DNA of 64,000 nucleotides from Candidatus Woesearchaeota archaeon (lineage in GTDB: Archaea > Nanobdellota > Nanobdellia > SCGC-AAA011-G17 > ARS1403). This document shows, in pieces, positions 24,290-44,254 of this stretch. Location of the stretch: NCBI GenBank assembly GCA_016188065.1, contig JACPIN010000005.1, positions 13,646 through 77,645 of the forward strand, given 5' to 3'. Each line of letters opens with the position of its first letter. Positions within the stretch are counted from its first letter, which is position 1. The position numbers and the translations under genes are program-made. Below the pieces are notes generated by a model that saw only the letters and a program-made list of their open reading frames with translations, was not told the DNA's origin and made no database searches.

Positions 24290-24298
24290 TTTATATAA
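24290..24298 (+). promoter_or_regulatory. Archaeal TATA box for tRNA-Leu
   Basis: TTTATATAA centred about 27 bp upstream of the tRNA 5' end at 24321. Confidence 0.45.
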
Positions 24299-24320: not shown

Positions 24321-24437
24321 TGCGGGAGTGCCGGAGTGGCCAAACGGGGTAGAAATTCCAAAATTGCCCGACCTCAAGAATTTGGCTAAGAAAGCTACTG
24401 GCTTAGTGCCTACGCAGGTTCGAATCCTGTCTCCCGC
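24321..24437 (+). tRNA. tRNA-Leu(CAA), class II, with two predicted introns (19 nt at 30/31 and 14 nt at 37/38)
   Basis: Acceptor GCGGGAG/CTCCCGC; 3-bp D stem with 11-nt loop; T arm GCAGG-TTCGAAT-CCTGT. Removing 24352-24370 and 24379-24392 gives anticodon arm GTAGC-CTCAAGA-GCTAC; variable arm GGC-TTAGT-GCC; mature length 85. Confidence 0.6.
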
Positions 24438-24478
24438 AGTTTGGATAAGCATATAAGCCTTAAGATATTTATTTTTAT

Positions 24479-24703
24479 ATGGAGAAAAGTATAGAAATAT
24501 TCTGCTATTATAGTGAATGCGGAAGAGGGAATAATTTGGGTGATAGAAATTATGTTATTGACGAAAAAGAAAAATACTATTTCTGTGATTCGGGATGCAA
24601 AGCAATGTGGGCTGTTGAGAATTCTCCAGATATATTAATGTTAGGACTACGTGAAAAGGGGATAGAATATTTAGTTACTAGAAATAGGATAGTTGAGGTA
24701 TGA
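24479..24703 (+). CDS. Small Cys-rich zinc-ribbon/TRASH-like protein
   Basis: 74 aa; CYYSEC...YFCDSGC pattern of YHS/TRASH-type metal-binding domains. Confidence 0.35.
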   Translation: MEKSIEIFCYYSECGRGNNLGDRNYVIDEKEKYYFCDSGCKAMWAVENSPDILMLGLREKGIEYLVTRNRIVEV

Positions 24704-24764
24704 CCTTCGGAGTTTTTAAATTTAAATTGGGAAATTTTAAATAACCCATCATTATTAGTTTTTT

Positions 24765-25331
24765 ATGGAAGAAAGATTTCTTGAAAAGCTGAAAAAAATA
24801 AAAAGGGGACCTGCAATTATCCTGCAGAAAGATGCGGGCGTTATTTTAGCTAATACTAGCATCGACAAAAATTCAGTTGTGTTAGATGCAGGATCTGGAT
24901 GCGGGGTTTTAACTGCCAATCTTGCAAGATTTGTAAAAAAAGTTTACAGCTATGATAACAGAAAAGAGTTTTTGGAGATAGCTAAAGAAAATGCAAAAAT
25001 GCTTGGGCTAAAAAATATTGTTTTTAGGAACAAAGATATCTTTGAAAACATTAAAGATAAAAACTTGGATTTAATAACCTTGGATTTGAAAGATTCTTGG
25101 AGGGCTTTGGAAAACTGCAAAAAAGCATTGAAAGAAAATGGCGAGCTTGCTGTTTATTTTCCGAATATTACTCAAGTGCATGAATTTGTGAATAAGCTAG
25201 GAGAAGATTTTAAACTCTTAAAAGTTATTGAGGATATTCAGAGAGAATGGATCGTTGATGAGAGAAGAGCAAGACCCGAAAACATCGGGATTTTGCATAC
25301 GGGATTCTTAGTATTTGTTAAGAAAAATTAG
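24765..25331 (+). CDS. Class I SAM-dependent methyltransferase (TrmI/GCD14-like or small RNA MTase)
   Basis: 188 aa; VLDAGSGCGVLT motif I. Confidence 0.55.
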   Translation: MEERFLEKLKKIKRGPAIILQKDAGVILANTSIDKNSVVLDAGSGCGVLTANLARFVKKVYSYDNRKEFLEIAKENAKMLGLKNIVFRNKDIFENIKDKNLDLITLDLKDSWRALENCKKALKENGELAVYFPNITQVHEFVNKLGEDFKLLKVIEDIQREWIVDERRARPENIGILHTGFLVFVKKN

Positions 25332-25377
25332 TTGTTTTCTTTCTTAAAAAGCATTACGAAAAGTTTTTTAATCTGAG

Positions 25378-26886
25378 TTGAATTTTGTTGTGGCGATGGC
25401 AAAGAAAAAAGGCGTGATTGCTCAGAGCTTGCAGAACTCAATTAAGGATGCAGGCGCTGTTTCTGTGATGGACGGGGCTGGAACTAATTTCGTCAGTCCT
25501 TTTGCTATTGCCATGCAGGCGACTCCTCTGCAAATAGGATTACTGACCTCTATAGCTAATCTTCTTGCACCGTGGTTCCAGATATTTGCAAACAAGCTAA
25601 TGAGAGTTAGAAGCAGAAAATTTATTGTAAGCAGAGCAGTTCTATTCCATGCTTTATTATGGATACCACTAGCTTTGATTCCATTTTTATTTAAAGACTT
25701 ATCGTTGAGAACTTGGAGCGTTGTTTTTTTGTTTGCCTTAATTGCTATTGTCGGCGGCTTTGCAAGCCCTGCCTGGAATTCATGGATAGGGGACCTTGTC
25801 AAAAAAGAAGAGAGGGGAAGATATTTCAGCAGGAGAAATAAGATTGCCGGCGCTGTTGTGCTGATAAGCAGCTTATTTGCGGCGTGGTTTCTGAATTTGT
25901 TCAACGGAGAAAAAAATAATTTAAGTGGGGAAGAGGTTTTAATAGGATTTAGCATTTTATTTTTTATAGCTTTTTTAGCAAGACTAATCTCGAGATATTA
26001 TCTCAACAGACAGTATGAACCTAAATTTAAATATGATCCTGAGAGTTATTTTTCTCTTGGCAGTTTCATGAAAAGATTGAGAAACAGCAACCTGGGAAGA
26101 TTTGTTTTATACAGCGCTTTGCTCAGGGCTGCTGTAACTATCTCTGGCCCTTTTTTTGCTGTCTACATGCTGAGAGAATTGAATTTTAGCTATCCTGCTT
26201 ATATTTCCATGACGGTTGCAAGCTCTTTGGGAAGCATTGCTATCCTTTCTATTTGGGGAAGATTAGTTGATAGATTTGGAACAGTTAAAGTAATTATCAT
26301 AAGCGGAATTATGCTCAGTTTTATCCCTTTATTGTGGCTGGTCAGCAGAAACTGGTATTATCTACTGCTGGTGAATGCTTTTGGCGGCGCAGCTTGGGGA
26401 GGATTTGGGTTGAGCGGCGGGAATTTTATTTTCGACGTTGTTCCAAGGGAAAAAAGATCATTTGCGTTTGCATATTATAATATTTTCATCGGTGCAGGAA
26501 TCTTCATTGGCGCTTCCATCGGCGGATTGATTGCAACACACAGCAGCTTAAAGATTTTGGGAAGTGTTTATCTATTTTTGTTTACTATTAGCGGACTGGC
26601 AAGATTGTTTTTTACCTTGATTTTTGTTTTTGGCTTAAGAGAAGAAAGGAAAGTTGAAGACAAGCCTATTGTGGAAATTGCCGGCACAGAATTGATGGGA
26701 GGCTTTGTCGACGATGTTTTTGTCTTTGTGAACAATGCCTTGCCTAGAAGAGAAGCTATTGAAGAAGCATTGAAAGTGAACAGCATAAAGTTGAAAGAGA
26801 AGAGAAAAATCCTGAGAAGAAGAATATTAAAGTTCAACAGAAAATTCAGCGATAAAAAAGAAAAAAGCTTCTTTACAAAAATTTAA
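25378..26886 (+). CDS. MFS transporter
   Basis: 502 aa, 12 TM in a 6+6 arrangement with a basic central loop; C-terminal K/R-rich tail. Confidence 0.65.
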   Translation: MNFVVAMAKKKGVIAQSLQNSIKDAGAVSVMDGAGTNFVSPFAIAMQATPLQIGLLTSIANLLAPWFQIFANKLMRVRSRKFIVSRAVLFHALLWIPLALIPFLFKDLSLRTWSVVFLFALIAIVGGFASPAWNSWIGDLVKKEERGRYFSRRNKIAGAVVLISSLFAAWFLNLFNGEKNNLSGEEVLIGFSILFFIAFLARLISRYYLNRQYEPKFKYDPESYFSLGSFMKRLRNSNLGRFVLYSALLRAAVTISGPFFAVYMLRELNFSYPAYISMTVASSLGSIAILSIWGRLVDRFGTVKVIIISGIMLSFIPLLWLVSRNWYYLLLVNAFGGAAWGGFGLSGGNFIFDVVPREKRSFAFAYYNIFIGAGIFIGASIGGLIATHSSLKILGSVYLFLFTISGLARLFFTLIFVFGLREERKVEDKPIVEIAGTELMGGFVDDVFVFVNNALPRREAIEEALKVNSIKLKEKRKILRRRILKFNRKFSDKKEKSFFTKI

Positions 26887-26924
26887 AAACTGTTTTTCTT
26901 TGTGTAAATCTTAGTATAGTATTT

Positions 26925-27365
26925 TTAATGCATTTGCTTTAATTTAGAATAAATGCGTTTTGTAAAATATATTACTTTTTCTGCATATGACTTATCTAAA
27001 ATTGTACCGTAGTAGAGCATTCCATTTCTGAAAAACCTCATCTGATCAGCGAATTGCACATCCTTCTCATCAAATTCTAAAACCCTCATATAAGATACTT
27101 CAGCTTCATGCGCCCCAAACCCAGAAGCATTATATCCAGCTAAAAGCATCTTTGCTCTTATTAACTCCATTAATATATCATAACAAGATTTTACAAAATC
27201 ATTGGCATTAGCATCATTCAATTTTATCTTTTGTATTTTCTCCAATAGATTAGTATAACTGTTTTCAGATTCCTTAATCAAAAATTCTGCTCGAGATTTG
27301 TCTGCAGATTGCTTTTTAACAACATTATCTTTTATGAATTCATCAAATTTTCGTATTGCTCTCAT
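26925..27365 (-). CDS. HEPN-like partner protein of the upstream nucleotidyltransferase
   Basis: 146 aa all-alpha; overlaps the NTase gene stop by 4 nt (ATGA), the classical MNT-HEPN arrangement. Confidence 0.4.
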   Translation of the reverse strand: MRAIRKFDEFIKDNVVKKQSADKSRAEFLIKESENSYTNLLEKIQKIKLNDANANDFVKSCYDILMELIRAKMLLAGYNASGFGAHEAEVSYMRVLEFDEKDVQFADQMRFFRNGMLYYGTILDKSYAEKVIYFTKRIYSKLKQMH

Positions 27366-27910
27366 AGCTCAATTCCTCCTGCAAGGACAATTCCATTGTA
27401 CAAGTTTTCTTTCAAATTCTTATGGATATTTTTAAATGAAATGTAAAAATTTATATTTATTTTTCTCTCTAACAATTTTTCATAATTTGTTGTATCAATT
27501 ATTTTATCTTTCCTGCCGATTACTGCAAAATCTATGTCTGAATTTATTGTATCTTCGCCTCTTGAATAGCTTCCGAATAAAATTATTGCAGCTCCTGCAA
27601 ATTCTTTTTCAAGAAAATCTGCAAGCCCGGTTTCATATATCTGTTTTAAGTTGTCTACCATTTTTAGCTGCATTACTTTGTGATTATCCCTGTTCAATTC
27701 TATTGACCACCTTTTTGTTTCTTTGTCCTGATGTATTTTGATTAACTTTTCTTTTTCCAACGCTGGAAGCGCTTTCATTACTGCTGGCTGTGTAACCCAC
27801 AAAAAATTTGATATCTGTCTTTGATTTAGCAGAATTCCTACCTTTACAAATAGGAGCCTTAAAATCTCCTGCTGTAGACTTGTTAACTTTAGTTTATAGA
27901 TATTTACCAT
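27362..27910 (-). CDS. HTH plus minimal nucleotidyltransferase (MNT) fusion
   Basis: 182 aa; N-terminal wHTH; ILFGSYSRGEDTINSDIDFAV (GSxxxGxxxxxSDxD NTase motif). Confidence 0.7.
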   Translation of the reverse strand: MVNIYKLKLTSLQQEILRLLFVKVGILLNQRQISNFLWVTQPAVMKALPALEKEKLIKIHQDKETKRWSIELNRDNHKVMQLKMVDNLKQIYETGLADFLEKEFAGAAIILFGSYSRGEDTINSDIDFAVIGRKDKIIDTTNYEKLLERKININFYISFKNIHKNLKENLYNGIVLAGGIEL

Positions 27911-28015
27911 AGTTAATATATATTAACTTTAGTTTATATATCTTTTGGTTTTGTTTCTAAAATCGAAAATTTTAGCAATATTTAAAAGAAGCTTTTTCTT
28001 TAAAGTTTTCATAAT

Positions 28016-28176
28016 GCCCGGGTAGCTCAGCCTGGAAGAACCCTTTTGGAAAAAGCGTTCACGGAAAATTAAGCTTCACCAAAGAAAGCGGTTCTGGGTA
28101 AATAGAGCACAGATCTTAGCAAAAGAGTGCGACACTCCTAATGCTGGGGCCGGGGGTTCGAATCCCCTCTCGGGCG
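28016..28176 (+). tRNA. tRNA-Arg(CCU) with two predicted introns (67 nt in the D loop at 20/21 and 20 nt at 29/30)
   Basis: Acceptor GCCCGGG/CTCGGGC. Removing 28036-28102 restores the canonical D arm GCTC-AGCCTGGTA-GAGC. Removing 28113-28132 gives anticodon arm CAGCA-CTCCTAA-TGCTG. T arm GGGGG-TTCGAAT-CCCCT. Mature length 74. Confidence 0.55.
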
Positions 28177-28177
28177 A

Positions 28178-28834
28178 TTATTCATTTTTCGAAGTTTTTC
28201 TTCTATGCTTGATATATTCCATGATTGCCGGAATGAACGAGATAATTACAATTATTGCAATTACAAGAGTAAGATTCTCTTTTATATACGCAATGTTGCC
28301 GAAGTAAAATCCTGAAAAAATAAATATTGCAACCCATGCTATTCCTCCAATTACGTTATAAATTAAAAAAGTAAGATAATCCATCTTTCCTATTCCTGCG
28401 ATGAATGGTGCAAATGTCCTAATAATCGGAATAAAGCGTGCAAGCACAATTGTTTTCTTGCCGTGATGATGAAAAAATAATTTTGTTCTTTCGATATGCT
28501 CTTTCTTGATAAATTTTGAAAAAAATTTTTCTCCGAAGTGATAGCCAATCCAATAATTAATGGTGTCTCCTAAAATCGCTGCAATTGAAAGCAATAAAAA
28601 TAACAGATAAACATTTAATGCGCCTGCTGCTGCTAGCGCCCCTGCAATAAAAAGCAAAGAATCTCCTGGAAGGAATGGAGTCAAAACAAATCCAGTTTCC
28701 ATAAAAATGATGAGGAAAAGCAGAAGATAAACAAAGTCTCCATAGCTTTGGATAAGCACAGTGAGAGAAGTGTCTAAGTGAAGAATAAAGTTGATGATGG
28801 ATTTAATCATTTTCCAATTATAAAAAAACACCAT
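28178..28834 (-). CDS. DedA/TVP38-family membrane protein
   Basis: 218 aa; FLPGDSLLFIAGALAA DedA signature. Confidence 0.75.
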   Translation of the reverse strand: MVFFYNWKMIKSIINFILHLDTSLTVLIQSYGDFVYLLLFLIIFMETGFVLTPFLPGDSLLFIAGALAAAGALNVYLLFLLLSIAAILGDTINYWIGYHFGEKFFSKFIKKEHIERTKLFFHHHGKKTIVLARFIPIIRTFAPFIAGIGKMDYLTFLIYNVIGGIAWVAIFIFSGFYFGNIAYIKENLTLVIAIIVIISFIPAIMEYIKHRRKTSKNE

Positions 28835-28931
28835 TAATAAATGTTCAGTTGCTAAAAAAAGAGAACAAATAGCTTTATATATAAGTTCTGCTACTATTTT
28901 GATTTAAGAAGCCGAGAGGTGTAAAAAGAGG

Positions 28932-29669
28932 ATGACTACTCCTTCAAAAATTGTTCAGGGAATGGGTATTAATTTTGAAGAGCCTGTAATTAGGGAAAAA
29001 GAGCAAAAGCAGGATCTTAATAGGTTTAGTAAAATGGTTCCTTTTCTTATGCAAAAAGGCATTGACAAGCTTAACTTAACCATGTTCAGCCCAGAGCTTA
29101 GAAAAGATTTACTGCTTGCAATGGGTGATGAGTATAGGAAAAAAGGAGACTTGTATGATGCTGCAAGAGCGTACCTTTTAGCTGATCATAAAGAAAATTT
29201 AAACCTTATCGGAGAGGATTATGAAGTGTTGATGCAGTGGGATAATTGCGTTGAAGTCTATAAAATGGCTGGAAATAGGTCAAAATTATTGAAGATTGGC
29301 AGGAAATGCATCCAAGATGGAAATTTGAAACAGGCTGCCAAGGCTTTTATGGCTGCAGATGACTCTGATAATCTGCTTATTGTTGGAGAGAAATGCATGG
29401 ACTGCTACAGGTTTGATCAGGCTTTTGAGGTTTTTTCATTCTTACATGACAAGCATAAATTAGTCACACTTGGGATGAGGTGCTTGGAGCACAATGAATA
29501 CCATTATGCAATTAAATCATTTAATGCTGCTGAAGACAAGGAAAAATTAAACTTGACTGGTGATCAATTACTTAAAGAAGAAAAAATAGAGATGGCTTTA
29601 GAGGCATACAAGCTTGCGGACAATCAGCCAATGGTTGCTTTTATCAAGCAGAACTTTATTAATTTTTAA
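28932..29669 (+). CDS. Soluble tandem-repeat protein (four ~38-aa alpha-helical repeats), unknown function
   Basis: 245 aa; repeats with the pattern G-x-x-Y-D/K-A-A-x-A-Y/F-x-x-A-D-x-x-x-N-L-x-x-x-G-E. Confidence 0.35.
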   Translation: MTTPSKIVQGMGINFEEPVIREKEQKQDLNRFSKMVPFLMQKGIDKLNLTMFSPELRKDLLLAMGDEYRKKGDLYDAARAYLLADHKENLNLIGEDYEVLMQWDNCVEVYKMAGNRSKLLKIGRKCIQDGNLKQAAKAFMAADDSDNLLIVGEKCMDCYRFDQAFEVFSFLHDKHKLVTLGMRCLEHNEYHYAIKSFNAAEDKEKLNLTGDQLLKEEKIEMALEAYKLADNQPMVAFIKQNFINF

Positions 29670-29708
29670 TTTCTAAAGATTTTTATATTTGAAAGTTTTT
29701 TACATTAT

Positions 29709-30155
29709 ATGCCAGCAGATATTATTATCCTTTTATACATCCTTGGAATTTTTGCTGCGATTGCTTTTTGGGAGGCTTATATTGAGGGGAAAAATGGGTG
29801 GGCTGCAAATCAAGTTGGCTGGAGGATTAATTTCAAAGTTGGTTTTCTGAAAAGGCCATTGGATGCATATCACTTTTGGAGCTGGCTTGTGATGATTCCT
29901 GCTTTCTTGATGCTTCCGTTTTTGATGTTTGGATTTGACAGGCATTTATTCTGGCTAGTTATAATTGGCCTCTTGCTCGGAACTGTTTTAGAAGATTTTT
30001 TATGGTTTGTTGTGAATCCCAAATTTCCTTTAAGTGATTTTAACCCCAAGAAAGTTTGGTGGCATTACTGGATTGGATTTGGAAGATTTAAAGTACCTGA
30101 GATTTACGTTGTTTATCCTGTTGTTGCTTTGCTGATAGGAATTTTTCTATTATAG
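29709..30155 (+). CDS. Small Trp-rich membrane protein (hypothetical)
   Basis: 148 aa, 4 TM. Confidence 0.3.
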   Translation: MPADIIILLYILGIFAAIAFWEAYIEGKNGWAANQVGWRINFKVGFLKRPLDAYHFWSWLVMIPAFLMLPFLMFGFDRHLFWLVIIGLLLGTVLEDFLWFVVNPKFPLSDFNPKKVWWHYWIGFGRFKVPEIYVVYPVVALLIGIFLL

Positions 30156-31212
30156 ATGCTGCCTGCTCTGCTCCATTAGTTTCAATATTTAATTTATCAA
30201 AATTCTTTTCCAAATCTGGCATTATGGTTATGAACTCCTCAATTATCGACGATAACTGCTGCTTTATCAAGTTTTTTTTCCTTTCAACTAATGAAATCCT
30301 GCTCTTTTCTGCGAAATGCGCGTTTAATTCCTGCTCGATAAAATTAGGTATTGGAAATATCAATGAAGGCTTCTTTAAGGCGATGCATTCTGAAAGCGTT
30401 GAGTGGCCTGCTTGGGTTATTATCCCCTTTGAGGCTTTTAAATACTCCAAAAAATTTTCCTTGAACTGGAGGAAGGTTATATTTCCTTTTGATTCTCCTG
30501 AAATCCCGTATGTAAAAATTATAAATTCCTCTTTTATTTCCGGCAAGATCTCCTGAAGGTTATAGAGAAGCTCTGTTGAAAAATGAGACCCTCCAAACAT
30601 TATAATTATCGGCGGCTTTTCTAGCTTCAATTTTTCCATGAGTTCATGCTTAGACGCCTTCGGCAGCTTCCTTAATACGGGATTTACAAAATTGTAGCCT
30701 CCTGTTAAATGTTCCTCAAAAGTTGGAATTATAATCGGTGTGTTTGATTTTCTTGCTTTGTTGTAAATTAACGAGATGTACTTGTACTGCGCCCAGTATC
30801 TTCTCTTCTTTGACTTAACATATTCCTTGTATTGCAATGGATCGAAGTTAAAAATTACAAAGTGCTGCTTTTTTTTATTCATGTAGAGCGGGAGAGGCTC
30901 AAAATCGCAGATTATAGCGTCGGGATTGAATACTTTAAACAGCCTTCTTAATTTAAAATAATTTTTAAGGCAGAGTATTGGAAGCTTTAGGTTCATAAAA
31001 ATGGTCTTCATCGTCGAGAATCTTGAATCTTTTTCTGGAAATTTCGGACCATCGATTTTTAACGTGGTATATGTGTGCTCGAAATACTCTAATGCATTGC
31101 CATAAGAAGCTACAACGATCTCAGCTCCTTTCTTTTCCAATTCAGACAGGATTGCTGCCTGCCTGATCGCATGGCCATAACCTATTCCAGTTATAACTGA
31201 AACAACTTTCAT
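30088..31212 (-). CDS. GT-B fold glycosyltransferase (GT1/GT28-like)
   Basis: 374 aa; N-terminal VITGIGYGHAIRQAAILSEL resembling the GxGxGH motif of the MurG/MGT families; C-terminal nucleotide-sugar-binding half. Confidence 0.5.
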   Translation of the reverse strand: MKVVSVITGIGYGHAIRQAAILSELEKKGAEIVVASYGNALEYFEHTYTTLKIDGPKFPEKDSRFSTMKTIFMNLKLPILCLKNYFKLRRLFKVFNPDAIICDFEPLPLYMNKKKQHFVIFNFDPLQYKEYVKSKKRRYWAQYKYISLIYNKARKSNTPIIIPTFEEHLTGGYNFVNPVLRKLPKASKHELMEKLKLEKPPIIIMFGGSHFSTELLYNLQEILPEIKEEFIIFTYGISGESKGNITFLQFKENFLEYLKASKGIITQAGHSTLSECIALKKPSLIFPIPNFIEQELNAHFAEKSRISLVERKKNLIKQQLSSIIEEFITIMPDLEKNFDKLNIETNGAEQAASIIEKFLSAKQQQDKQRKSQVL

Positions 31213-31850: not shown

Positions 31851-31873
31851 TTTTATTTTTGGATTGTGTTGAA

Positions 31874-31989
31874 TGCGTCGGCCGGGATTCGAATTTCCGA
31901 ACCTATAAAGGCTTCCCGGATCATCGCCTTGGAAGGGCGAAATTTCAGCCCGTTTGTTTTATGACGCCTGGCCATTGAACTACCGACGC
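31874..31989 (-). tRNA. tRNA-Gly(UCC) with two predicted non-canonical introns (D-loop and T-loop)
   Basis: On the minus strand: acceptor GCGTCGG/CCGACGC; intact anticodon hairpin TCGCC-CTTCCAA-GGCGA; T stem CCGGG...CCCGG interrupted by about 21 nt before TTCGAAT; about 22 nt of extra sequence in the D loop. Exact splice boundaries are uncertain. Confidence 0.45.
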
Positions 31990-32022
31990 TCATTATGCTG
32001 GAAGAATTTTTAGTTTTTAAAA

Positions 32023-34605
32023 TTATTGTTTCTTGCTGTTTAATTTACTGAATGCATATTCTACCTGCTGCCTGCTCCACCCTCTTTCCAGCAAAGAATC
32101 AGCAATCTTCTCCTCATCGTATCCTTTATCCAGTGCTGATTTTATGTATGACCTGACTTTTGCCAACTCTACTCCTGACTTGAACGGAGATTTCTTGAAT
32201 CTTGAAGAAAGTAAATTTATCACTTCGTATAATTTTAGCTTCTGATAGAGCTTAAATTTATAAAATGCAAATCCGAGCCCTAAAATTAAAATTACTGTGA
32301 CTATAAATGGAATCCATGGAAATCCAGATACAACTACTTTTTCTTCTCTGCAATCCTCTGGGCAGGAGATAATGTCCTCTGCTGGATTGCAAACTCCATC
32401 GCCGCAGTTGAAGGGGATTAAGCTTGGAGAAAGCTCTTTTGGAATTACAACCAATACAGCATCTTTAACACTATTAATATTGTTGGAATGCAGCTTGTAG
32501 GAAAATGAAAATGAGTCTTTTAAAACTGGTATTGTGAACTTTGCACTTTGATAATCCTGCAGCCTTGTTATTTCTGGAAATGAATCTGTGAACTCAATTT
32601 TGTCTTGCGAAGATGCCAGCGAAGTTGGAATTAACTCAATTATGATTGCTTCCCTTATTTCCAGCGGAGTTGTTATAGTTTTCTTTACTAAAATAAAGCT
32701 TTCCTGCTTATTTGGATATGATAATGAAACTGCTGTTGCCGCCACTTCTTTCTGAAGCCTTGAATTTAATTCCTGCAATGTAGCCTTGTAGCTTTCTGTC
32801 TCAAGACCATATAACTTGTTAGTTTCTTCAACTGAAAGATAGGGTGTTATCGTTATTTTATTTACAGCTGTTATTGACGTCGGTATTGAATTTATGAGGT
32901 CATTAACTTCCTCTTCTGTCAATGTTGTTGACGATGACAGCGTTGAAATAGAACTATCTATTTTTTTACCTAAAGCAAGGCTTTCAAAAATCTCTTTTGT
33001 TGCCGGCATGGATAATTTATCTTTAATTGACTGCAGCCTTGAGATTGCTTCCTGAACTAACTCTGTTTTTGCCTTCTCTGAAAATATTTCTACCTGCAGC
33101 GTTTTTTCATCTGATATTCCATTTTCGTCTGTGACTATTAATTTAACTAAATAAACTTTTGGAAGTAGATATGAATGCGTTGTTGTCTTTGCATTAGCTG
33201 TAGTGTTGTCGCCAAAATCCCAGCTGTATGCCAGTTTGGAATCTGATTTTGAGCTTGATGCGTCGAATGTTATTGGCGTCAGCGTTGGTGCAAATTGCTG
33301 TGATATGTTAAAACCTGCTGCTGGCGCTGAGACTACTTGTATGTTTGCAGTTGCTGCTTCAGCCCCATACTCGACTTTTAATGTATAATTTCCAAGGTTT
33401 TTAGGAGCAAAAAGATCAAATTTTGAAACGGGAATTACTGCTTTTGATGATAGTTTATAATATGGCTTTTCTCCTTGTGAGTTCACTCCCAGCAAAAACT
33501 TATTTCTATTATAGGATTGCCCATCTTCAAGAGTTTCTGTGTAAGACAAATCATGGATCTTTACATTGTTTCCATTTTTAGCTGTCACATTAATTGGGAT
33601 TATACAGAAATCATCTTGATATGTACATGCCTGCAGGAAATTTGCGATTGCGTCTTTGAAATATTTTTCTTGAATTGTGTTTGATTCGAAATATTCCAGA
33701 GATTCTTGCAGCGTTGTTATGAAATTTGAAGATTTTGCCTTTATTGCATAATCTGTGTTTTGTATTTTGCTGCATGACGAAGCTGTGCATCTATATCCTT
33801 GTGAGTTAGATACAGAGTCATTTACAGCTAAAACAATTCCTGCTGAAGGCGCTGTCAGGCATATTTTATAATCTCCTTCATTAATTGGAGCAGAAGTTGA
33901 AATCGTACATTCTATTTCGGTAAATGTTTGCTGCAAAGAACTGCATGATTGCAGATTTGTTTCTATTCCTTGTATATATATTCCTAAACTTGGTGGGGCG
34001 GTTATTGATTTTTTTATTGCTGAGCTAATTCTGAATGTGTCTGATTTGTTCAAAAATATTTGCTGGCAGGTTCCTGTAGAATCCAAATTCAATTCTGTTG
34101 CATCGGCTGCATTAATTTCTGCTCCTTTATATTGATTCACATTCCAATCGATAACTGCCGGTGATTTTCCCTGGAATTCCCAGTCTATTATCCCATCATT
34201 GCCTACATCCACTCTTGGAGTGTCTGGATAATTTGCATCCGAATTTGATATATTGAATTTTGCATCAATGCCAATTGTCGAACCTTTTTTTATCCTGATT
34301 CCCGTTAGAAAGTTTGACGAGTTTATTTCTGTTGCTGTTGCTCCTGTGTAAACAAAATACTCTGAAGACTTTTCCTCGCATCCAGATGTGCAATTTATTA
34401 CTTGCTGTATCTGCTTTTCTTTTGAAACTGAATTTATTGAAACCTTTATTGTAGAATCTTTGCTGTAAGCCCCTTCCTGCAAGATAAGATTTCCCGATAA
34501 TTGCTTTTCCTTTCCTGCTTTTGACTCGTTGAAATCAAATGAAACAGCCATAGCCGTGCTTGCAAAAGCTATTAAGACAATCAAAAAGACTAGTTTCTTT
34601 AGCAT
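32023..34605 (-). CDS. Large secreted cell-surface protein with PKD domain and C-terminal TM anchor
   Basis: 860 aa; signal peptide; PKD-like segment (PITFDASSSKSDSKLAYSWDFGDNTTANAKTTTHSYLLPKVYLVKLIVTDENG); C-terminal TM (IPFIVTVILILGLGFAFY) plus cytoplasmic tail. Confidence 0.55.
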   Translation of the reverse strand: MLKKLVFLIVLIAFASTAMAVSFDFNESKAGKEKQLSGNLILQEGAYSKDSTIKVSINSVSKEKQIQQVINCTSGCEEKSSEYFVYTGATATEINSSNFLTGIRIKKGSTIGIDAKFNISNSDANYPDTPRVDVGNDGIIDWEFQGKSPAVIDWNVNQYKGAEINAADATELNLDSTGTCQQIFLNKSDTFRISSAIKKSITAPPSLGIYIQGIETNLQSCSSLQQTFTEIECTISTSAPINEGDYKICLTAPSAGIVLAVNDSVSNSQGYRCTASSCSKIQNTDYAIKAKSSNFITTLQESLEYFESNTIQEKYFKDAIANFLQACTYQDDFCIIPINVTAKNGNNVKIHDLSYTETLEDGQSYNRNKFLLGVNSQGEKPYYKLSSKAVIPVSKFDLFAPKNLGNYTLKVEYGAEAATANIQVVSAPAAGFNISQQFAPTLTPITFDASSSKSDSKLAYSWDFGDNTTANAKTTTHSYLLPKVYLVKLIVTDENGISDEKTLQVEIFSEKAKTELVQEAISRLQSIKDKLSMPATKEIFESLALGKKIDSSISTLSSSTTLTEEEVNDLINSIPTSITAVNKITITPYLSVEETNKLYGLETESYKATLQELNSRLQKEVAATAVSLSYPNKQESFILVKKTITTPLEIREAIIIELIPTSLASSQDKIEFTDSFPEITRLQDYQSAKFTIPVLKDSFSFSYKLHSNNINSVKDAVLVVIPKELSPSLIPFNCGDGVCNPAEDIISCPEDCREEKVVVSGFPWIPFIVTVILILGLGFAFYKFKLYQKLKLYEVINLLSSRFKKSPFKSGVELAKVRSYIKSALDKGYDEEKIADSLLERGWSRQQVEYAFSKLNSKKQ

Positions 34606-34656
34606 TAATATCCCTCTTTATTGCTGTAGAAAATATATTTCTTTTTATATAAATAT

Positions 34657-35178
34657 TTACTTTTTGAATTCTTTTCCTTTTGCTGACGGGATGATTTGGA
34701 TTTTTGCATTGCTGAATTTCGCATTCAGTTCTTCCCCCCTTAAAATCACGTGAAGGAAAACTGCCAGTGCTGAAACTTCTGAAATCGGCTGTTGAGTAAC
34801 TGAAACATTGTAATCTGATTCTTTAAAAATTTCAGGAGGTACTTTTTCTCCTCCAACAATGACTAGAATATCTTTCTGGACTTTTATTTTTTTTAAAATG
34901 GAATTTAATGTTAAGCCATAAACAGATAAATGGATTATTAAAAATTCTTCATCCTTTTTTTCATTAATCAGCTTTACTGGATCTTCAATGTGCTCTATTT
35001 TGAAATTCCCTCCAAACTGGCTTGTTACTTTATTTATTGTTGCCTCTAAAGAAGAATCTTTATCTCCAGAATAATATATTTTTGAAGCCAAGAATGCCCT
35101 TGCTGTTAGTGCTAGATGCGTTGATAATCTTGGATCTCTTCTAATCCTATGAGATAAGCGAAGAATTTCTATTTGCAT
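34657..35178 (-). CDS. tRNA (cytidine56-2'-O)-methyltransferase aTrm56 (SPOUT)
   Basis: 173 aa; LRLSHRIRRDPRLSTHLALTARAF and VGGEKVPPEIF...TQQPISEVSALAVFL closely parallel Pyrococcus aTrm56. Confidence 0.85.
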   Translation of the reverse strand: MQIEILRLSHRIRRDPRLSTHLALTARAFLASKIYYSGDKDSSLEATINKVTSQFGGNFKIEHIEDPVKLINEKKDEEFLIIHLSVYGLTLNSILKKIKVQKDILVIVGGEKVPPEIFKESDYNVSVTQQPISEVSALAVFLHVILRGEELNAKFSNAKIQIIPSAKGKEFKK

Positions 35179-35230
35179 TTTAATTTAATAAAGGATAGTT
35201 ATTTAAATATATTTAGCAGATTTTTTTATA

Positions 35231-36124
35231 ATGAATTGGGAAGAATTTTTAGAGAAGCACTATAAGAAACTTTTTGTAGTTCCTGCAATCATGCTGATAT
35301 TTAGTCTGATTGTTGTCGGAATTTTTTTAAACAAAACTGGAGAATTGTTCTACAGAGATGTTAGCTTGAAGGGCGGGATCAGCGCAACGGTTTATGAGAA
35401 AGGCATTGATGCTGAGAAGCTTGAAAAATTTCTTGAAGATGAGCTGGGGACAGATGTGTTTGTCAGGAAGCTTGGAGACATTGCGACAGACAGCGACATC
35501 GGCGTTGTCGTCGAGATTGGCGATGAAGCCACTGGTGAATTGAAAAAACTTATAGAGGAAAATATTGGAAGAGGATTGAATGAAAAAAATTTCAGCATTG
35601 AGCAGGTTAGCAGCAGCCTCGGAGAGAGCTTCTATAACGGCCTGCTTAAGGCAGTGGTGATTTCTTTTGCATTAATGGGGCTTGTTATTTTTGTCGCCTT
35701 CAGAAGCTTTGTCCCAAGCGCTGCGGTGCTATTAAGCGCTTTTCTTGATATAGTATTTCCGCTTTCCATTATGGAGCTGGCGGGAGTAAAGATAAATGCT
35801 GCCGGCATTGCTGCTTTCCTGCTTGTCATAGGATATAGTGTAGACACAGATATACTACTAACAGTTAAAGCATTAAAAAGAAAAGAAGGCAATATTTATC
35901 AGAGGATCATTGATTCTGCAAAGACTGGCTTAACTATGACTTTAGCTACTGTCTGCGCTTTAGGTATTGCTTACTTTATCACAACCAGCTTTGTGCTGAA
36001 GCAGATGTTTATGATTATTGTGATTGCCTTGCTTGTAGACATTGTTTCAACTTATTTCATGAACTCTGGAATATTAATCTGGTATTGCAAGAAACGAGGA
36101 GAAAATGAAAAGTTTTGGGGTTAG
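35231..36124 (+). CDS. secF: Protein-export membrane protein SecF
   Basis: 297 aa; N-terminal TM; DVSLKGGIS (the LDFxGG-type motif); six C-terminal TM helices of the SecDF fold. Confidence 0.7.
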   Translation: MNWEEFLEKHYKKLFVVPAIMLIFSLIVVGIFLNKTGELFYRDVSLKGGISATVYEKGIDAEKLEKFLEDELGTDVFVRKLGDIATDSDIGVVVEIGDEATGELKKLIEENIGRGLNEKNFSIEQVSSSLGESFYNGLLKAVVISFALMGLVIFVAFRSFVPSAAVLLSAFLDIVFPLSIMELAGVKINAAGIAAFLLVIGYSVDTDILLTVKALKRKEGNIYQRIIDSAKTGLTMTLATVCALGIAYFITTSFVLKQMFMIIVIALLVDIVSTYFMNSGILIWYCKKRGENEKFWG

Positions 36125-37832
36125 GATTAACTTGCTTATATTTATGCTGATCTTGTCTTTCATAGCAATAGCTCCCAGACTTAGTGTTGACGGCGTTGAG
36201 ATAAAAAGCTTGGACGTTGTAAGCAAAAGCCAGGGGCTTGGCATCGGAGAGGTTGTAAAGAGCATTGGTGATGCAAATGTGGATAGCCCTGAGAAATTTG
36301 CTGAACTTCTGAAGGATGCCAGTTCTGTCAAGCCTGTGAAGATAAATATTGTTACTGATAAGAATAATGCAAGCTATTTTGCACAAGATGATTTATTGTT
36401 CGAGCTTGATAATTTGACTATCAAGAATTCTAAAATTGGAAACATTAGAGACGGAGAGATGCTGAAAGAGATAAATAATGTTAAGATTGAAAGCATTGAT
36501 GATTGGGAGAGGATTAGATACGAGCTACTGCCAAGCAAAATTGTGAGGATTAAAACCGACAAGAAAGAGTATGTTTTTCAAGTGAACAAGGAAATTGAAA
36601 TAAATGTAAAAGAAGTAAGCAGAAGCAATATCAGGAAAGGCTTGGACCTTGAAGGTGGAACTAGAGTTTTATTAAAGCCTGTTGGGGAGACCAAAGCAAG
36701 CGATCAAGACATTAGAAATTTAATCGATGTCATTTCTGACAGGCTTGACATTTATGGATTAGCAGACAAGAGGATAAGGGCTGCTGATGTCGGCGAGGAT
36801 AAATTAATTCTGATTGAAATTGCAGGCATATCCAAGGAACAGGTTGAAGACTTTATTGCGACACAAGGAAAGTTTGAAGCCAAAATCGGGAATGAAACTG
36901 TTTTTACCGGAGGCAATGATGTTCCATTTGTGTGCAAAGATGATGGAACCTGCTCTGGAGTCAGGAGCTGCAGTTCAGTGAGTGAAGGACAATATGGATG
37001 CAGGTTTGAGTTCAGCATTAAGCTAAGCATTGAAGCTGCCAAAAGGCATGCTGAAATAACAAAAAAATTGGACGTTGTAAGCGGAAGCGGAGTTAGCGGC
37101 GAGGGGTATTTGAGCAAACCACTTGAATTATATCTTGATAATGAGCTGATTGACAGCCTGCAAATCTCCTCCAGCTTGAAGGGCAGCGAGACGACTGATA
37201 TTCTTATTTCTGGAAGCGGGTTTGGCGAGAATCAGGATGCTGCACTGAATGATGCTTTGTTAAATATGGAAAAGCTGCAGACGGTTTTAATTACGGGAAG
37301 CCTTCCATTCCAATTAGAGATTGTAAAAATTGACAGCATCAGCCCAATATTCGGAGAGGAGTTTTTGAAGAACGCGGTCCTTTCCGGCGCTGTTGCAGTG
37401 GTTGCTGTTTTAATTGTAGTGTTTATCCGCTATAGAAATTTCAAAATTATCTTTCCTATGATGATCACTCTATTAAGCGAGATATTTATCATACTTGGAT
37501 TTGCCGGGCTATTCAAATGGAACTTGGATTTAGCTGCGATCGCGGGAATAATTGCTTCTGTCGGCACTGGAGTAGATGACCAGATAGTGATTGCAGATGA
37601 AATATTAAGAGGGAAAGAGCAGTATTTCAACTGGAAAGAAAAATTAAAACGGGCTTTCTTTATAATCCTCGTTGCTTATGCTGCTACATTTGCTGCAATG
37701 CTTCCTTTGATATGGGCTGTTGCCGGCTTATTGAGGGGATTTGCAATTGCAACCCTTGTTGGAGTTACAATTGGAGTATTTGTTACTCGCCCTGCATTTG
37801 GTGCAATGCTTGAAAAACTCATGAACAAATAA
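36105..37832 (+). CDS. secD: Protein-export membrane protein SecD
   Basis: 575 aa; large periplasmic-type domain; GLDLEGGTRVLL motif; C-terminal 6-TM SecDF domain; overlaps secF by 20 nt. Confidence 0.75.
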   Translation: MKSFGVRINLLIFMLILSFIAIAPRLSVDGVEIKSLDVVSKSQGLGIGEVVKSIGDANVDSPEKFAELLKDASSVKPVKINIVTDKNNASYFAQDDLLFELDNLTIKNSKIGNIRDGEMLKEINNVKIESIDDWERIRYELLPSKIVRIKTDKKEYVFQVNKEIEINVKEVSRSNIRKGLDLEGGTRVLLKPVGETKASDQDIRNLIDVISDRLDIYGLADKRIRAADVGEDKLILIEIAGISKEQVEDFIATQGKFEAKIGNETVFTGGNDVPFVCKDDGTCSGVRSCSSVSEGQYGCRFEFSIKLSIEAAKRHAEITKKLDVVSGSGVSGEGYLSKPLELYLDNELIDSLQISSSLKGSETTDILISGSGFGENQDAALNDALLNMEKLQTVLITGSLPFQLEIVKIDSISPIFGEEFLKNAVLSGAVAVVAVLIVVFIRYRNFKIIFPMMITLLSEIFIILGFAGLFKWNLDLAAIAGIIASVGTGVDDQIVIADEILRGKEQYFNWKEKLKRAFFIILVAYAATFAAMLPLIWAVAGLLRGFAIATLVGVTIGVFVTRPAFGAMLEKLMNK

Positions 37833-38010
37833 ATTTATAAATGATAAGAGATATATATTGAAAGAGGTGATTATTTAATGGTTGATGCTAATACAATTAT
37901 GCTTTATGTTATTGTTGGAGCAGTTTTCGGCATTGTTTACGGCTTGAGAAGGATCTATGTTATTGAGAGAAAAATAGATGCTATCGATAAAAGAATTGCA
38001 CAAGTATTGG

Positions 38011-38766
38011 TCAAGAAGAGGAAGAGATAAATTCCTTTCTTGCTTTTTCTAAGGTTTCTGGTGTGCCTATATCGAAATATTTCCCTCCAATCTTAACTCC
38101 ATAAATCGTATCTTTTTTATAAAGCCACTGTAAAAAATACCCGGGGGCATCTGGATTATTACCTTCGTTCAAATACAATTTAATTTTATTAATTGATTTT
38201 TTCTTTAGGAGATAAACTACATGCGCAATGAGTTTTGATTTTGGATTCTCTGGCTTTTCTATCAATGAAATAATTTTAGAGTCTCTGTCCAAATCTACTA
38301 CCCCATGTTTTTTTGCTTGCTCTAATGTAGGCAATTCGACTATTACTATAACATTTTCATTTTTTTCTTTGAAATAATCGTAAACCGGATTTAGGCTTGA
38401 ACTGAACAAATTATCTCCGGCGATAATAAGAACATCTGAATTAATATTTTCTGAACTCAAAACAAGATTTATATCTCCTATAGCTCCAAGCTTATCTTCT
38501 TCATGCAGTGTACCATCATTAATTATCTTTATATCTAATTTTGTTTTCAAATTATCTTTCCATCTGACAAAATGATTACAGTAGCGATTATTTGTCACGA
38601 CATAAACTTTGTTTATTTCTTTAATAGGCTCTAATTTCTCGACGATGTTTGTTATCACTGGCTTTCCTCCCACCTCCAGCAACGGCTTTGGGAAATTTTT
38701 TGTTAATGGATATAATCTAGTACTGTATCCTGCTGCCAGTAAAATTACATCTATATCCTTTTTCAT
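38011..38766 (-). CDS. Sugar-phosphate nucleotidyltransferase (NDP-sugar pyrophosphorylase)
   Basis: 251 aa; ILLAAGYSTRLYPLT (the GxGTRLxPLT signature). Confidence 0.8.
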   Translation of the reverse strand: MKKDIDVILLAAGYSTRLYPLTKNFPKPLLEVGGKPVITNIVEKLEPIKEINKVYVVTNNRYCNHFVRWKDNLKTKLDIKIINDGTLHEEDKLGAIGDINLVLSSENINSDVLIIAGDNLFSSSLNPVYDYFKEKNENVIVIVELPTLEQAKKHGVVDLDRDSKIISLIEKPENPKSKLIAHVVYLLKKKSINKIKLYLNEGNNPDAPGYFLQWLYKKDTIYGVKIGGKYFDIGTPETLEKARKEFISSSS

Positions 38767-39632
38767 CTTATTTTCAACCCTCCGTTTAAAATTAGCTGAA
38801 TTATTTTTATATTATTCTCTTCGAATACTGGCTTTAATTTATTTTCCAGATCCAGAACTATGGCTGCCCCTCCAGACCCTGTTTGATTTGCAAACCCTTT
38901 ATTTTTCAATATTAAATCCTTTACGAGCTTATCCTCTTTTGTCAACCCGAGAGTTGATTCCCTGATTTCCCAGTTGTTATTCATCAGCAACCCTAACCTT
39001 TTCCAATCCATTTTTTGGAGTGCTGCATGCGCATCTAGTGTTATCTCCCTTGTTTTTTTCATGAGAGAGATAAATTCTTCACTGCCCTTTTTCTTTCCAT
39101 TATTATGGATGTCTTTTGAAGTGTTATTTTTTCCATAATAGACTATGTACATTCCCTGAGGGATTGATGTTAGCTTTTGGCAGGTAAAATTTTTACAGTC
39201 AATCAATGAGGAGCCAAAAACTGCAACGGCCCTGTCCTGCCATCCTGCATTTATTTTTAATTCTCTTTCTATCTGCAGTGCATGCTTTGAGATATCTGTC
39301 AGGGAAAGATTCAAATTGAATCTCTTATTCAAACATGCTATTAATGAAACTAGAATTGCTGCTGACCCTCCAAGACCGCACTTGAATGGAATATCCGACG
39401 AATAATCTATTTTTAAAGGCGCAGCTATATTGAAATGCTTTAGTGCCTGATGTATAAGCTTATGAGTTGAGTCTAGATTAGTTTCAGAATTAATTATGAG
39501 CTTATTTGAATCATCTAATTTCACTATGGCTTTGTTTTTTATTGAATAAGCAAGGACTAGCGCATCTTCCAAGTAAACATCTCCTGGATTTCCTGTAACT
39601 GCTGCCCTTCCTGTCGCCTCTGCCTCTATCAT
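38763..39632 (-). CDS. GHMP-family sugar kinase
   Basis: 289 aa; PFKCGLGGSAAILVSL GHMP ATP-binding motif; coupled to the downstream NDP-sugar pyrophosphorylase, consistent with a sugar-1-kinase. Confidence 0.7.
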   Translation of the reverse strand: MIEAEATGRAAVTGNPGDVYLEDALVLAYSIKNKAIVKLDDSNKLIINSETNLDSTHKLIHQALKHFNIAAPLKIDYSSDIPFKCGLGGSAAILVSLIACLNKRFNLNLSLTDISKHALQIERELKINAGWQDRAVAVFGSSLIDCKNFTCQKLTSIPQGMYIVYYGKNNTSKDIHNNGKKKGSEEFISLMKKTREITLDAHAALQKMDWKRLGLLMNNNWEIRESTLGLTKEDKLVKDLILKNKGFANQTGSGGAAIVLDLENKLKPVFEENNIKIIQLILNGGLKIR

Positions 39633-39685
39633 CGAAAATTTTTCTTAAAGATATGTTTAAATAACTTTTCTTTAATTTTTATTTT

Positions 39686-40096
39686 ATGCAACAAGTTTAT
39701 TTACATGCTTTATTTGCTTTTGCATTAGCAGCAATATTGTATCCTTTTATCGGCAATTACAGCATTGTTGTTTTCCTGAGCGGATTTGTCTTTGACATTG
39801 ACCACTACATCTATTACGCTGCCAAAAAAAGAGATTATAATCTTATGAACGGGTATTTTTATCACGTCCCCGGAAGCAAGGTTCATGAGGAGCACAGCGA
39901 TTCACTTCATATCTTTCATACTTGGGAGATGTGGCTGCTGCTTTTTATTCTTGGTCTTTTGATACACGAGATATTTCTATTCACATTAATAGGAATTATA
40001 TTTCACATGATTTTTGACTGGGGATATTTGCTTTTCAACAGCGATGCACTAGGCGAGAGAGCTTGGTCATTAATCGGATGGATTTCAAGAAACTAA
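39686..40096 (+). CDS. Small His-rich membrane protein (possible membrane-bound metal-dependent hydrolase, DUF457-like)
   Basis: 136 aa, 4 TM; His-rich loops (HYIYY, HEEHSDSLH, FHMIFDWGY). Confidence 0.3.
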   Translation: MQQVYLHALFAFALAAILYPFIGNYSIVVFLSGFVFDIDHYIYYAAKKRDYNLMNGYFYHVPGSKVHEEHSDSLHIFHTWEMWLLLFILGLLIHEIFLFTLIGIIFHMIFDWGYLLFNSDALGERAWSLIGWISRN

Positions 40097-40097
40097 A

Positions 40098-40106
40098 TTT
40101 TATAAA
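40098..40106 (+). promoter_or_regulatory. Archaeal TATA box for tRNA-Ser
   Basis: TTTTATAAA about 27 bp upstream of the tRNA start at 40129. Confidence 0.45.
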
Positions 40107-40128
40107 GCGGGATTTCTTGTTTTCTTAT

Positions 40129-40248
40129 GCCGAGATCGCATAATCTGGTATTGCGCAGGTCTTGAATGAAACTTTTAGAAAAAGCTTCACCAAAAATAAG
40201 ATAACCTGTTCCCGAGAGGGTATCTGGGTTCAAATCCCAGTCTCGGCG
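40129..40248 (+). tRNA. tRNA-Ser(UGA), class II, with a 36-nt canonical (37/38) intron
   Basis: Acceptor GCCGAGA/TCTCGGC; 3-bp D stem with 11-nt loop; anticodon arm CAGGT-CTTGAA[intron 40167-40202]A-ACCTG; variable arm TCCCGAGAGGGTA; T arm TCTGG-GTTCAAAT-CCCAG. Confidence 0.75.
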
Positions 40249-42320: not shown

Positions 42321-42362
42321 ATATCGGAACTATTTGTTCATATATCGGAACTATTTGTTCAT
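42321..42362. repeat. Perfect tandem duplication of a 21-bp unit (ATATCGGAACTATTTGTTCAT x2) between a TATA-like element and the start codon of the HTH-NTase gene
   Basis: Copies at 42321-42341 and 42342-42362; a TATA-like ATATATAAA follows at 42361-42369; the gene start codon is at 42318-42320 on the minus strand. Confidence 0.8.
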
Positions 42363-42431
42363 ATATAAATCTTTGCATAATTTTTGAATCTAAGTACTTG
42401 AATTTAGTATTGTTTATTTGATGAGACTTAA

Positions 42432-42653: not shown

Positions 42654-42665
42654 TTTTCTTTGATT

Positions 42666-43931: not shown

Positions 43932-44004
43932 AGATTTATGGCGTATTTTAACTATATAAATCTTTGTTTTTATAATACGTAAAAATTATAAATTTTACGC
44001 ATTT

Positions 44005-44235: not shown

Positions 44236-44254
44236 ATATTATAGTAGAATAGAT

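Follow-up and report, generated by a model that had tools for sequence, protein, structure and literature searches.

A 64,000-nt stretch of a Candidatus Woesearchaeota contig (JACPIN010000005.1, positions 13,646 to 77,645; hereafter the window) harbours four transfer RNA (tRNA) genes, tRNA-Leu(CAA), tRNA-Arg(CCU), tRNA-Gly(UCC) and tRNA-Ser(UGA), interrupted by a total of seven introns of 14-66 nt. From their sequence these loci are, with high confidence, four functional, single-copy-looking archaeal tRNA genes, whose precursors are predicted to carry seven protein-spliced introns of the bulge-helix-bulge (BHB) class. This reading is based on the restoration of cloverleaves, the BHB geometry of the junctions, the existence of intron-free orthologs of all four genes, the polymorphism of the Gly gene and covariation, which together bear out the proposal of a first-pass annotation that all four genes contain introns, three of them two each. 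The Leu, Arg and Gly genes have two introns and the Ser gene has one, corresponding to 1.75 introns per gene (n = 4). Five of the seven are in non-canonical positions, namely the D loop (19/20), the D stem (22/23), the anticodon stem (29/30 and 30/31) and the T loop (53/54).

Already the raw loci show complementary 7-nt acceptor strands and GGTTCRAATCC T-arm signatures at all four positions, and in silico removal of the introns gives canonical cloverleaves with U33, the GG of the D loop, a TTCRA T loop and, for Leu and Ser, class II variable arms. The precursors were scanned for BHB motifs independently of the boundaries proposed earlier. The scan looked for a 4-bp helix (H) between two 3-nt bulges, with an outer helix (h) and an inner helix (h′), the cut being placed after the second bulge nucleotide; this definition is taken from PMC5829648, which also covers the specificity of EndA, the archaeal tRNA-splicing endonuclease. 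The genes and introns are the following (pairs formed in H out of four, and base pairs in h and h′, in brackets).

24322-24438, plus strand: tRNA-Leu(CAA) gene with two introns, exons 24322-24352, 24372-24378 and 24393-24438
24353-24371, plus strand: Leu intron 1, 19 nt, anticodon stem 30/31, relaxed HBh′ (H 4/4, h 1, h′ 4)
24379-24392, plus strand: Leu intron 2, 14 nt, canonical position 37/38, weak BHB resembling a bulge-helix-loop
28016-28176, plus strand: tRNA-Arg(CCU) gene with two introns, exons 28016-28035, 28102-28112 and 28133-28176
28036-28101, plus strand: Arg intron 1, 66 nt, D loop 19/20, directly 3′ of G18G19, HBh′ (H 4/4, h 1, h′ 6)
28113-28132, plus strand: Arg intron 2, 20 nt, anticodon stem 29/30, HBh′ (H 4/4, h 0, h′ 4)
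31874-31989, minus strand: tRNA-Gly(UCC) gene with two introns, exons 31968-31989, 31915-31944 and 31874-31893
31945-31967, minus strand: Gly intron 1 (D arm), 23 nt, 22/23 in the 3′ strand of the D stem, full hBHBh′ (H 4/4, h 3, h′ 3)
31894-31914, minus strand: Gly intron 2, 21 nt, T loop 53/54, full hBHBh′ (H 4/4, h 3, h′ 5)
40129-40248, plus strand: tRNA-Ser(UGA) gene with one intron, exons 40129-40166 and 40203-40248 (ARAGORN -i, Rfam RF00005)
40167-40202, plus strand: Ser intron, 36 nt, canonical position 37/38, hBH (H 4/4, h 6, h′ 0)

A strict motif, with all four pairs of H and a flanking helix of at least 3 bp, occurs at about 0.3% of random window positions and was found at six of the seven junction pairs (binomial P about 5e-15, or 4e-12 when three registers are allowed per junction), so that the inspection of junctions suggested with the first-pass annotation came out in its favour. 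The motifs comprise two full hBHBh′ (both in Gly), three HBh′ (Leu intron 1 and both Arg introns) and one hBH (Ser); five of the seven are relaxed, i.e. the three HBh′, the hBH and the weaker motif of Leu intron 2. When each intron was folded locally with short flanks, H was part of the minimum free energy (MFE) structure for six of the seven, with pair probabilities of 0.5-0.99.

The host of the window, which has a G+C content of about 34%, is a groundwater archaeon of the Candidatus Woesearchaeota (DPANN). This assignment rests on archaeal marker genes within the window, including aTrm56, SecD/SecF, a GHMP kinase of the mevalonate pathway and a TrmI/GCD14-like methyltransferase, and on the closest genomes: the window SecD matches three Candidatus Woesearchaeota metagenome-assembled genomes (MAGs; species-representative genomes) at 78-87% identity, and the methyltransferase adjoining the Leu gene has a 100% identical counterpart among the Candidatus Woesearchaeota proteins of NCBI. 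The same tRNA genes were found in independent assemblies from JGI, ENA, NCBI and Logan, and near-identical ones are contained in 0.1-um fractions of groundwater such as the Hainich H51 samples; orthologous loci from related genomes and metagenomic contigs are labelled L001-L038. In the three MAG loci synteny is kept from about 29.6 kb of the window onward and broken upstream of about 28.9 kb; their Ser and Gly orthologs have conserved exons and differing intron complements. No Arg or Leu orthologs were found in the SecD-syntenic loci or in those retrieved with the Gly pattern, which is explained by the broken synteny and by the Arg gene not being beside the DedA/VTT gene in these relatives; these orthologs were reached via homologs of the methyltransferase adjoining Leu. 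Across the clade there are ten distinct intron sites in the four tRNA families, and all 17 spliced Leu, Arg and Ser orthologs were called as the same isoacceptor as the window gene of their family.

The spliced Gly tRNA has 72 nt and forms a perfect cloverleaf with the architecture of the intron-free orthologs L004, L010 and L030, whose 72-nt genes run uninterrupted over both predicted junctions (GGCYAG^AAT and CCGGG^TTCGA, the caret marking here and below the junction or cut). L009 has exons identical to those of the window, a near-identical D-arm intron and no T-loop intron. One metagenome scan with the Gly exon pattern yielded 27 more loci, and the Gly genes analysed include 29 complete ones with 23 distinct sequences. 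If the three sites are written as D (22/23), A (37/38) and T (53/54), six of the eight possible combinations are seen among these 29 orthologs: D-T in eight genes, DA- in six, D-- in six, -A- in four, -AT in two, and all three sites empty in three. None has all three sites filled and none has the T-loop intron alone, in a sample that is biased by search pattern and relatedness. At the D site H is paired everywhere in all 14 distinct orthologous variants, with compensatory changes at H4 (CG/TG/TA), h′1 (CG/GC) and h′2 (GC/TA/AT). At the T site H (TCCG/CGGA in the window, P(H) 0.94-0.99) is paired in all eight distinct variants, with compensatory changes between CG and TA at H2, h′3 and h′4. In the 14 distinct spliced sequences of intron-bearing Gly genes 293 of 294 stem cells are paired and eight of the 21 stem pairs have changed in a compensatory manner, and judging from these sequences the spliced cloverleaf is under purifying selection in intron-containing genes.

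The Leu gene ends with A73 at 24438 and does not encode CCA. Its spliced product is a class II cloverleaf with a long variable arm, which differs at three D-loop positions only from the intron-free L031/L032; both introns are present in L033, L034 and L036 and neither in L031, L032 and L035. Intron 1 has GGGT/GCCC as H, located within the local MFE structure, and bulges AG^A and GA^C, and its 4-bp h′ covaries among orthologs (AATT/AATT versus GATC/GATT). Intron 2, whose boundary is fixed by the intron-free orthologs, contains in H a C34.A mismatch that is kept in all four intron-bearing genes (window, L033, L034 and L036). As the outer helix of its motif (6 bp, equal to the anticodon stem) exists only once intron 1 has been removed, the anticodon-stem intron would have to leave first, and splicing probably proceeds from intron 1 to the 37/38 intron; sequential BHB formation has been described for closely spaced introns (PMC8450103). 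The C34.A mismatch would be a perfect U:A pair with the anticodon UAA, so that intron 2 or the whole gene may have arisen from a tRNA-Leu(UAA) gene. In no Leu gene is just one of the two introns present (L031/L032/L038 versus L033, L034, L036 and the window), and the relative nearest to the window by identity of neighbouring proteins (85%) is without both, more distant ones (74-83%) having both; this suggests that they were lost simultaneously, e.g. through a spliced-copy intermediate or gene conversion. In the window the two Leu introns contain complementary stretches (CCAAAATT/AATTTGG), a relation that L033, L034 and L036 do not preserve and that is probably due to chance.

The spliced Arg tRNA folds as Arg(CCU) and is the same as in the orthologs L032-L035 and L038, be these spliced or free of introns. 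The H of its D-loop intron (GCCT/GGGT) is found in both the global and the local MFE structure, with P(H) of 0.92-0.95, and the orthologs L034 and L035, which are without this intron, read CTGG^ATAGA across the junction (AGTCTGG^ATAGAGC in L034). Intron 2, with GCAC/GTGC as H, is present in L038 and, with 17 nt, in L034, and absent from L032, L033 and L035. L035 is intron-free, L032 and L033 carry the D-loop intron only, and L034 combines the 17-nt intron at 29/30 with an 11-nt intron at 37/38.

Directly after an MFS gene a 16-19-nt copy of the 5′ end of tRNA-Arg (AATGCCCGGGTAGCTCAGC..) is found in L038 (6352-6370) and L036 (5075-5093), and a 1.1-kb module encoding a 146-aa protein and an MNT-like nucleotidyltransferase lies between this copy and the complete two-intron Arg gene (7484-7645 in L038). 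The copy terminates at a distance of 1-4 nt from the D-loop intron site. In the window (26925-27910) the module is present and the repeat absent, and in L033 the D-loop intron is present and the module absent. The repeat looks like an att-type duplication from an insertion at the tRNA gene. A split tRNA-Arg, or one with a giant intron, was considered for L031/L036 and rejected, as the extended contig (L038) has the complete Arg gene 1.1 kb after the isolated 5′ fragment.

The Ser intron has CTTG/TAAG as H and a 6-bp h. Its orthologs are intron-free in L012, have a 29-nt homolog of the intron in L003 and an unrelated 12-nt intron in L002, L026 and L001, the last of which carries an additional 26-nt intron at 29/30. 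The intron complement of the clade is evolutionarily unstable, the same sites being occupied or precisely empty in close relatives. The uniform disruption put forward in the first-pass annotation refers to four genes (n = 4); close relatives have intron-free versions of each of them, so the state is polymorphic, not universal.

The individual boundaries of that annotation fared differently. The 36-nt canonical Ser intron was confirmed independently by ARAGORN in intron mode (-i) and by the Rfam tRNA model at 44.6 bits. For Leu both introns were exactly right in length and position, while the gene itself is shifted by 1 nt to 24322-24438. For Arg the 20-nt intron at 29/30 stands, but the D-loop intron has 66 nt instead of 67, as required by the BHB register and by the uninterrupted reading of L034 and L035. 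For Gly the T-loop intron was correctly recognised; the other intron had been placed in the D loop with a length of 26 nt, which results in a defective D arm, and its BHB-guided replacement of 23 nt at 22/23 in the D stem gives the perfect cloverleaf.

The expectation that standard tools would miss or mis-call such genes holds for the ARAGORN and Rfam runs. On the window, neither default ARAGORN nor Rfam at the gathering score reported any of the four genes. ARAGORN -i called Ser(UGA) correctly with its 36-nt intron, called Leu as Trp(CCA) and Arg as Ala(AGC), and missed Gly. A permissive Rfam scan recovered the Ser gene alone, and as its RF00005 score of 44.6 bits compares with a gathering score of 29, the miss in gathering mode is a filter artefact from the 36-nt intron. 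Over about 295 kb from the clade, default ARAGORN labelled Gly orthologs as Pro, Phe, Stop or undetermined (???). A brute-force search of both strands, requiring a perfect 7-bp acceptor stem and a T stem and removing BHB-like candidates singly and in pairs, passed about 0.4 million spliced tRNA-length candidates to ARAGORN. Neither this search (up to two introns) nor the permissive Rfam scan nor a scan for T-loop motifs revealed a fifth tRNA gene in the window, with the limit that genes with three introns, an acceptor-stem intron or an imperfect acceptor stem could escape; there was likewise no tRNA in the 10 kb to the right of the window, and on the other side the protein at the left end had no entry on record. 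A snoU30-like C/D-box match of Rfam (28459-28545, plus strand, 27.5 bits, E = 0.9), antisense inside the DedA/VTT open reading frame (ORF), was taken as chance.

TATA-box-like A/T-rich elements, read directly from the sequence, are located upstream of each gene and are by position and composition putative archaeal promoters.

24290-24298, plus strand: TTTATATAA, 24-32 nt upstream of the Leu gene
27978-27988: element upstream of the Arg gene
32012-32023, minus strand: element upstream of the Gly gene
40095-40107: element upstream of the Ser gene

By what is established for archaeal tRNA splicing, each gene would be transcribed from its own upstream A/T-rich promoter, and each exon-intron pair would then fold into a strict or relaxed BHB, with two 3-nt bulges, a 4-bp helix between them and an outer and/or inner helix flanking. 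EndA would be expected to cut within both bulges and an RtcB-type ligase to join the exons; CCA, as it is not encoded, would be added last, after splicing. In characterised systems relaxed motifs depend on an endonuclease whose specificity is broadened. According to PMC5829648, DPANN lineages have an alpha4-type EndA with an L3 loop that accompanies increased tRNA disruption, one Woesearchaeota genome being among those analysed there.

Some points weigh against functional, spliced genes. Excision itself is a prediction, and neither an EndA nor an RtcB gene is present among all 65 ORFs of the window. Unconstrained MFE folding of whole precursors yields the BHB for just one of the seven introns, a result which we judged uninformative rather than contrary because local folding recovers six. 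Leu intron 2 forms only three of the four pairs of H, and its BHB is not predicted by folding. The family relationship between introns described below consists of one strong pair and several weaker ones, in A/T-rich and partly palindromic sequence. As the scope is a 64-kb window, intact paralogs may exist elsewhere in the genome.

This last point leads to the question of whether the loci could be decaying tRNA pseudogenes with insertions, the functional intron-free copies being elsewhere, for which it may be said that intron-free versions of all four genes do exist in related genomes. These versions occupy syntenic orthologous positions, and the intron-free and intron-bearing forms are therefore alleles of one locus across genomes and not paralogs. 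Moreover, the insertions sit exactly at BHB-forming positions, the exons of intron-bearing Gly genes keep their stem pairs with the compensatory changes given above, and a TATA-like element is kept upstream of each gene, all of which makes decay very improbable. We attach practically no weight to the simpler solution in which the Leu locus is a single-intron Trp(CCA) gene and the Arg locus a single-intron Ala(AGC) gene. Solutions of this kind, with one intron or other anticodons, had been named beforehand as the ones that could overturn the first-pass annotation, and ARAGORN -i does output both of these calls; however, they require "introns" of 20 and 68 nt without BHB support, and the intron-free L031, L032 and L035 and the partial states of L034 fit only multi-intron Leu(CAA) and Arg(CCU) genes, which refutes both calls. 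The same program also gives contradictory identities to orthologs of one Gly gene. The four functional, intron-bearing genes are for these reasons retained as the best explanation. None of them is split or permuted, all four being collinear in the window, and group I or II self-splicing introns, whose ribozyme core spans hundreds of nucleotides and is recognised by covariance models, do not apply to introns of 14-66 nt which match no Rfam intron family at E<=1.

With regard to origin, a similar sequence is present in different tRNA species and at different positions, for one intron family only. The shared element (GAACCCTTTT..AAAAAGCGTTCACGGAAAAT) links the 5′ half of the Arg D-loop intron to the Ser intron at 37/38 in a local alignment of 31 columns, whose score was reached by none of 5000 shuffles and by 3 of 5000 fragments drawn at random from the window. 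This is the sole significant pair among the seven window introns, the other five showing no cross-similarity. Further matches of the Ser intron family are the Ser intron in L003 and, in L021, a Gly intron of 33 nt at 37/38. In L035, which NCBI lists under Nanoarchaeota, a 58-nt spacer (2027-2084) separates the intron-free tRNA-Leu from the HIT start codon and is related to the same sequences (window 28037-28069 and 40179-40201): over its first 33 nt it shares 88-94% identity with the Arg D-loop introns of four genomes, the second half is similar to the Ser/Gly 37/38 family, and it holds a TATA-like palindrome (CTTTTAAAAAAAG). The element has no match in IMG/VR. The presence of one family in different tRNA genes and in a spacer points to gain by transposition or DNA insertion and loss by precise deletion, the direction of single events being read from what is established for such introns; shared intron families across tRNA species have been interpreted as transposition before, and the origin of non-canonical archaeal tRNA introns is debated (PMC4033280).

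It is possible, though on balance doubtful, that the insertions are remnants or active ends of tRNA-targeting mobile DNA, tolerated because they are spliceable, in which case DNA-level insertion and excision would be ongoing instead of the complement being old and stable. The T-loop intron is present or absent between near-identical Gly genes (window and L008 versus L009), the same intron family occurs in Arg (D loop), in Ser and Gly (37/38) and in intergenic spacers, the Arg 5′ fragment is duplicated across the 1.1-kb module in L038 and L036, and the whole parallels the model proposed for Caldiarchaeum (PMC3293823). However, no integrase or transposase adjoins the window tRNA genes, the element is unmatched in IMG/VR, in L033 the D-loop intron occurs although the module is absent, events may have run in either direction and the link between fragment and intron is positional only. 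Such an origin is compatible with present-day function as described above. A related and rather speculative view, to which we would give less than even credit by a wide measure, is that the clade constitutes a live birth-death system of tRNA introns, in which intergenic or mobile promoter-like DNA inserts, survives where a BHB forms and is later lost precisely; it is hinted at by the shared family, the Arg 5′ fragment at the D-loop site, the joint absence of the Leu introns and the six Gly configurations.

Alternatively, the introns might be kept for a function of their own, as small RNAs such as C/D-box guides or as internal promoters. An intron of euryarchaeal tRNA-Trp hosts a C/D-box guide. 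The shared family contains a TATA-like palindrome (CTTTTAGAAAAAG), located in Ser about 25 nt upstream of the 3′ exon, and it resembles both the L035 spacer upstream of the HIT start codon and an intergenic promoter-like stretch in L025. On the other hand no Rfam family matches any of the introns at E<=1, these are 14-66 nt long and free of C/D boxes when read directly, they are freely lost in relatives, and in Arg introns the TATA-like core is broken by GG or CGG, so a retained function seems to us quite improbable.

Two genes for tRNA modification are found near the tRNA genes, a TrmI/GCD14-like (m1A57/58) methyltransferase (24765-25331) and aTrm56 (Cm56; 34657-35178). Both target the T loop, which in pre-tRNA-Gly is split by the 53/54 intron, and modification must there follow splicing. 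The lowest-GC part of the window (41724-46744, 29-32%) carries two AAA_14/DUF4143 ATPase genes and two further MNT-type nucleotidyltransferase genes and possibly represents a variable or mobile island. Relatives have intein/LAGLIDADG-containing genes beside the syntenic block (L037 3752-5567, L035 5413-5564), selfish insertions of a further class in these small genomes.

Genes of this type bear on tRNA inventories of the phylum. A 2026 preprint on 208 complete Nanobdellota genomes gives a median of 35 tRNAs per genome by tRNAscan-SE and reports tRNA-Trp as "missing" in 30 of 123 Woesearchaeales, tRNA-Val also being among the "missing" ones of complete Nanobdellota genomes; split tRNAs are discussed there and multi-intron genes are not (10.64898/2026.05.13.725050). 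Multi-intron genes are an obvious candidate explanation for the missing tRNAs, and missed genes would affect estimates of completeness and claims on codon usage and host dependence. Should the density of the window hold genome-wide, it could explain the low tRNA counts of complete Nanobdellota genomes, and at 1.75 introns per gene it would exceed the record cited for complete archaeal genomes, where 71 introns are spread over 46 genes at about 1.5 each (PMC8450103). The series of zero-, one- and two-intron alleles of the same syntenic gene represents an unusually fine-grained natural experiment on gain and loss of BHB introns, in a lineage whose endonuclease is by analogy expected to be of the "simple" alpha4 type.

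The introns belong to a class that is already known, that of EndA-type BHB introns in multi-intron tRNA genes, and show the features by which membership was tested. BHB introns at non-canonical sites, numbering up to three in one gene, are well established in several lineages. One of these is the Thermoproteales, for which multiple-intron tRNA genes were described by Sugahara 2008 and Fujishima 2010, as summarised in PMC4033280 and PMC8450103. Common to both systems are short BHB or relaxed introns at non-canonical sites, several per gene, and sequences shared between tRNA species. In contrast to these hyperthermophilic crenarchaea, the host of the window is a mesophilic, A/T-rich (34% GC) DPANN archaeon with a small genome, in which by analogy with the literature an alpha4 EndA with L3 loop would be expected instead of the (alpha-beta)2 enzyme with crenarchaeal loop. 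Intron density is seven in four genes in the window, a small sample (n = 4), versus an average of 0.84 per gene in Thermoproteales (PMC8450103).

The first-pass annotation regarded such genes as known mainly from Thermoproteales and a few other lineages, which overstates the novelty. Thaumarchaeota, a different phylum but likewise a mesophilic and fairly A/T-rich lineage, have many non-canonical BHB introns, whose detection needed a dedicated covariance model, the clade-specific BHB model of tRNAscan-SE 2.0 (PMC8450103). Within the DPANN superphylum, ARMAN-2 has disrupted tRNA genes and an epsilon2 EndA (PMC3239211), and the survey of Kaneta et al. 2018 found increased disruption including one Candidatus Woesearchaeota genome (PMC5829648). 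The available text of that survey gives per-genome proportions and holds no Woesearchaeota gene structures, ortholog comparison or turnover, whereas here junctions, BHB covariation and polymorphism are documented. The closest parallel in terms of origin is the tRNA-Thr(GGU) of Caldiarchaeum subterraneum, for which intron gain via integration of mobile DNA was proposed (Sugahara 2012, PMC3293823). There too the number of introns varies at one locus and an inserted element parts a 5′ tRNA fragment from the full intron-bearing gene; unlike in Caldiarchaeum, the module described here is without recombinase, the link between fragment and intron is positional, and there are far more allelic states, six for Gly. 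What is less ordinary in the present clade, when compared to these systems, is the local density, from a small number of genes, the fast turnover and allelic diversity among close relatives, and an intron family shared with an intergenic spacer.

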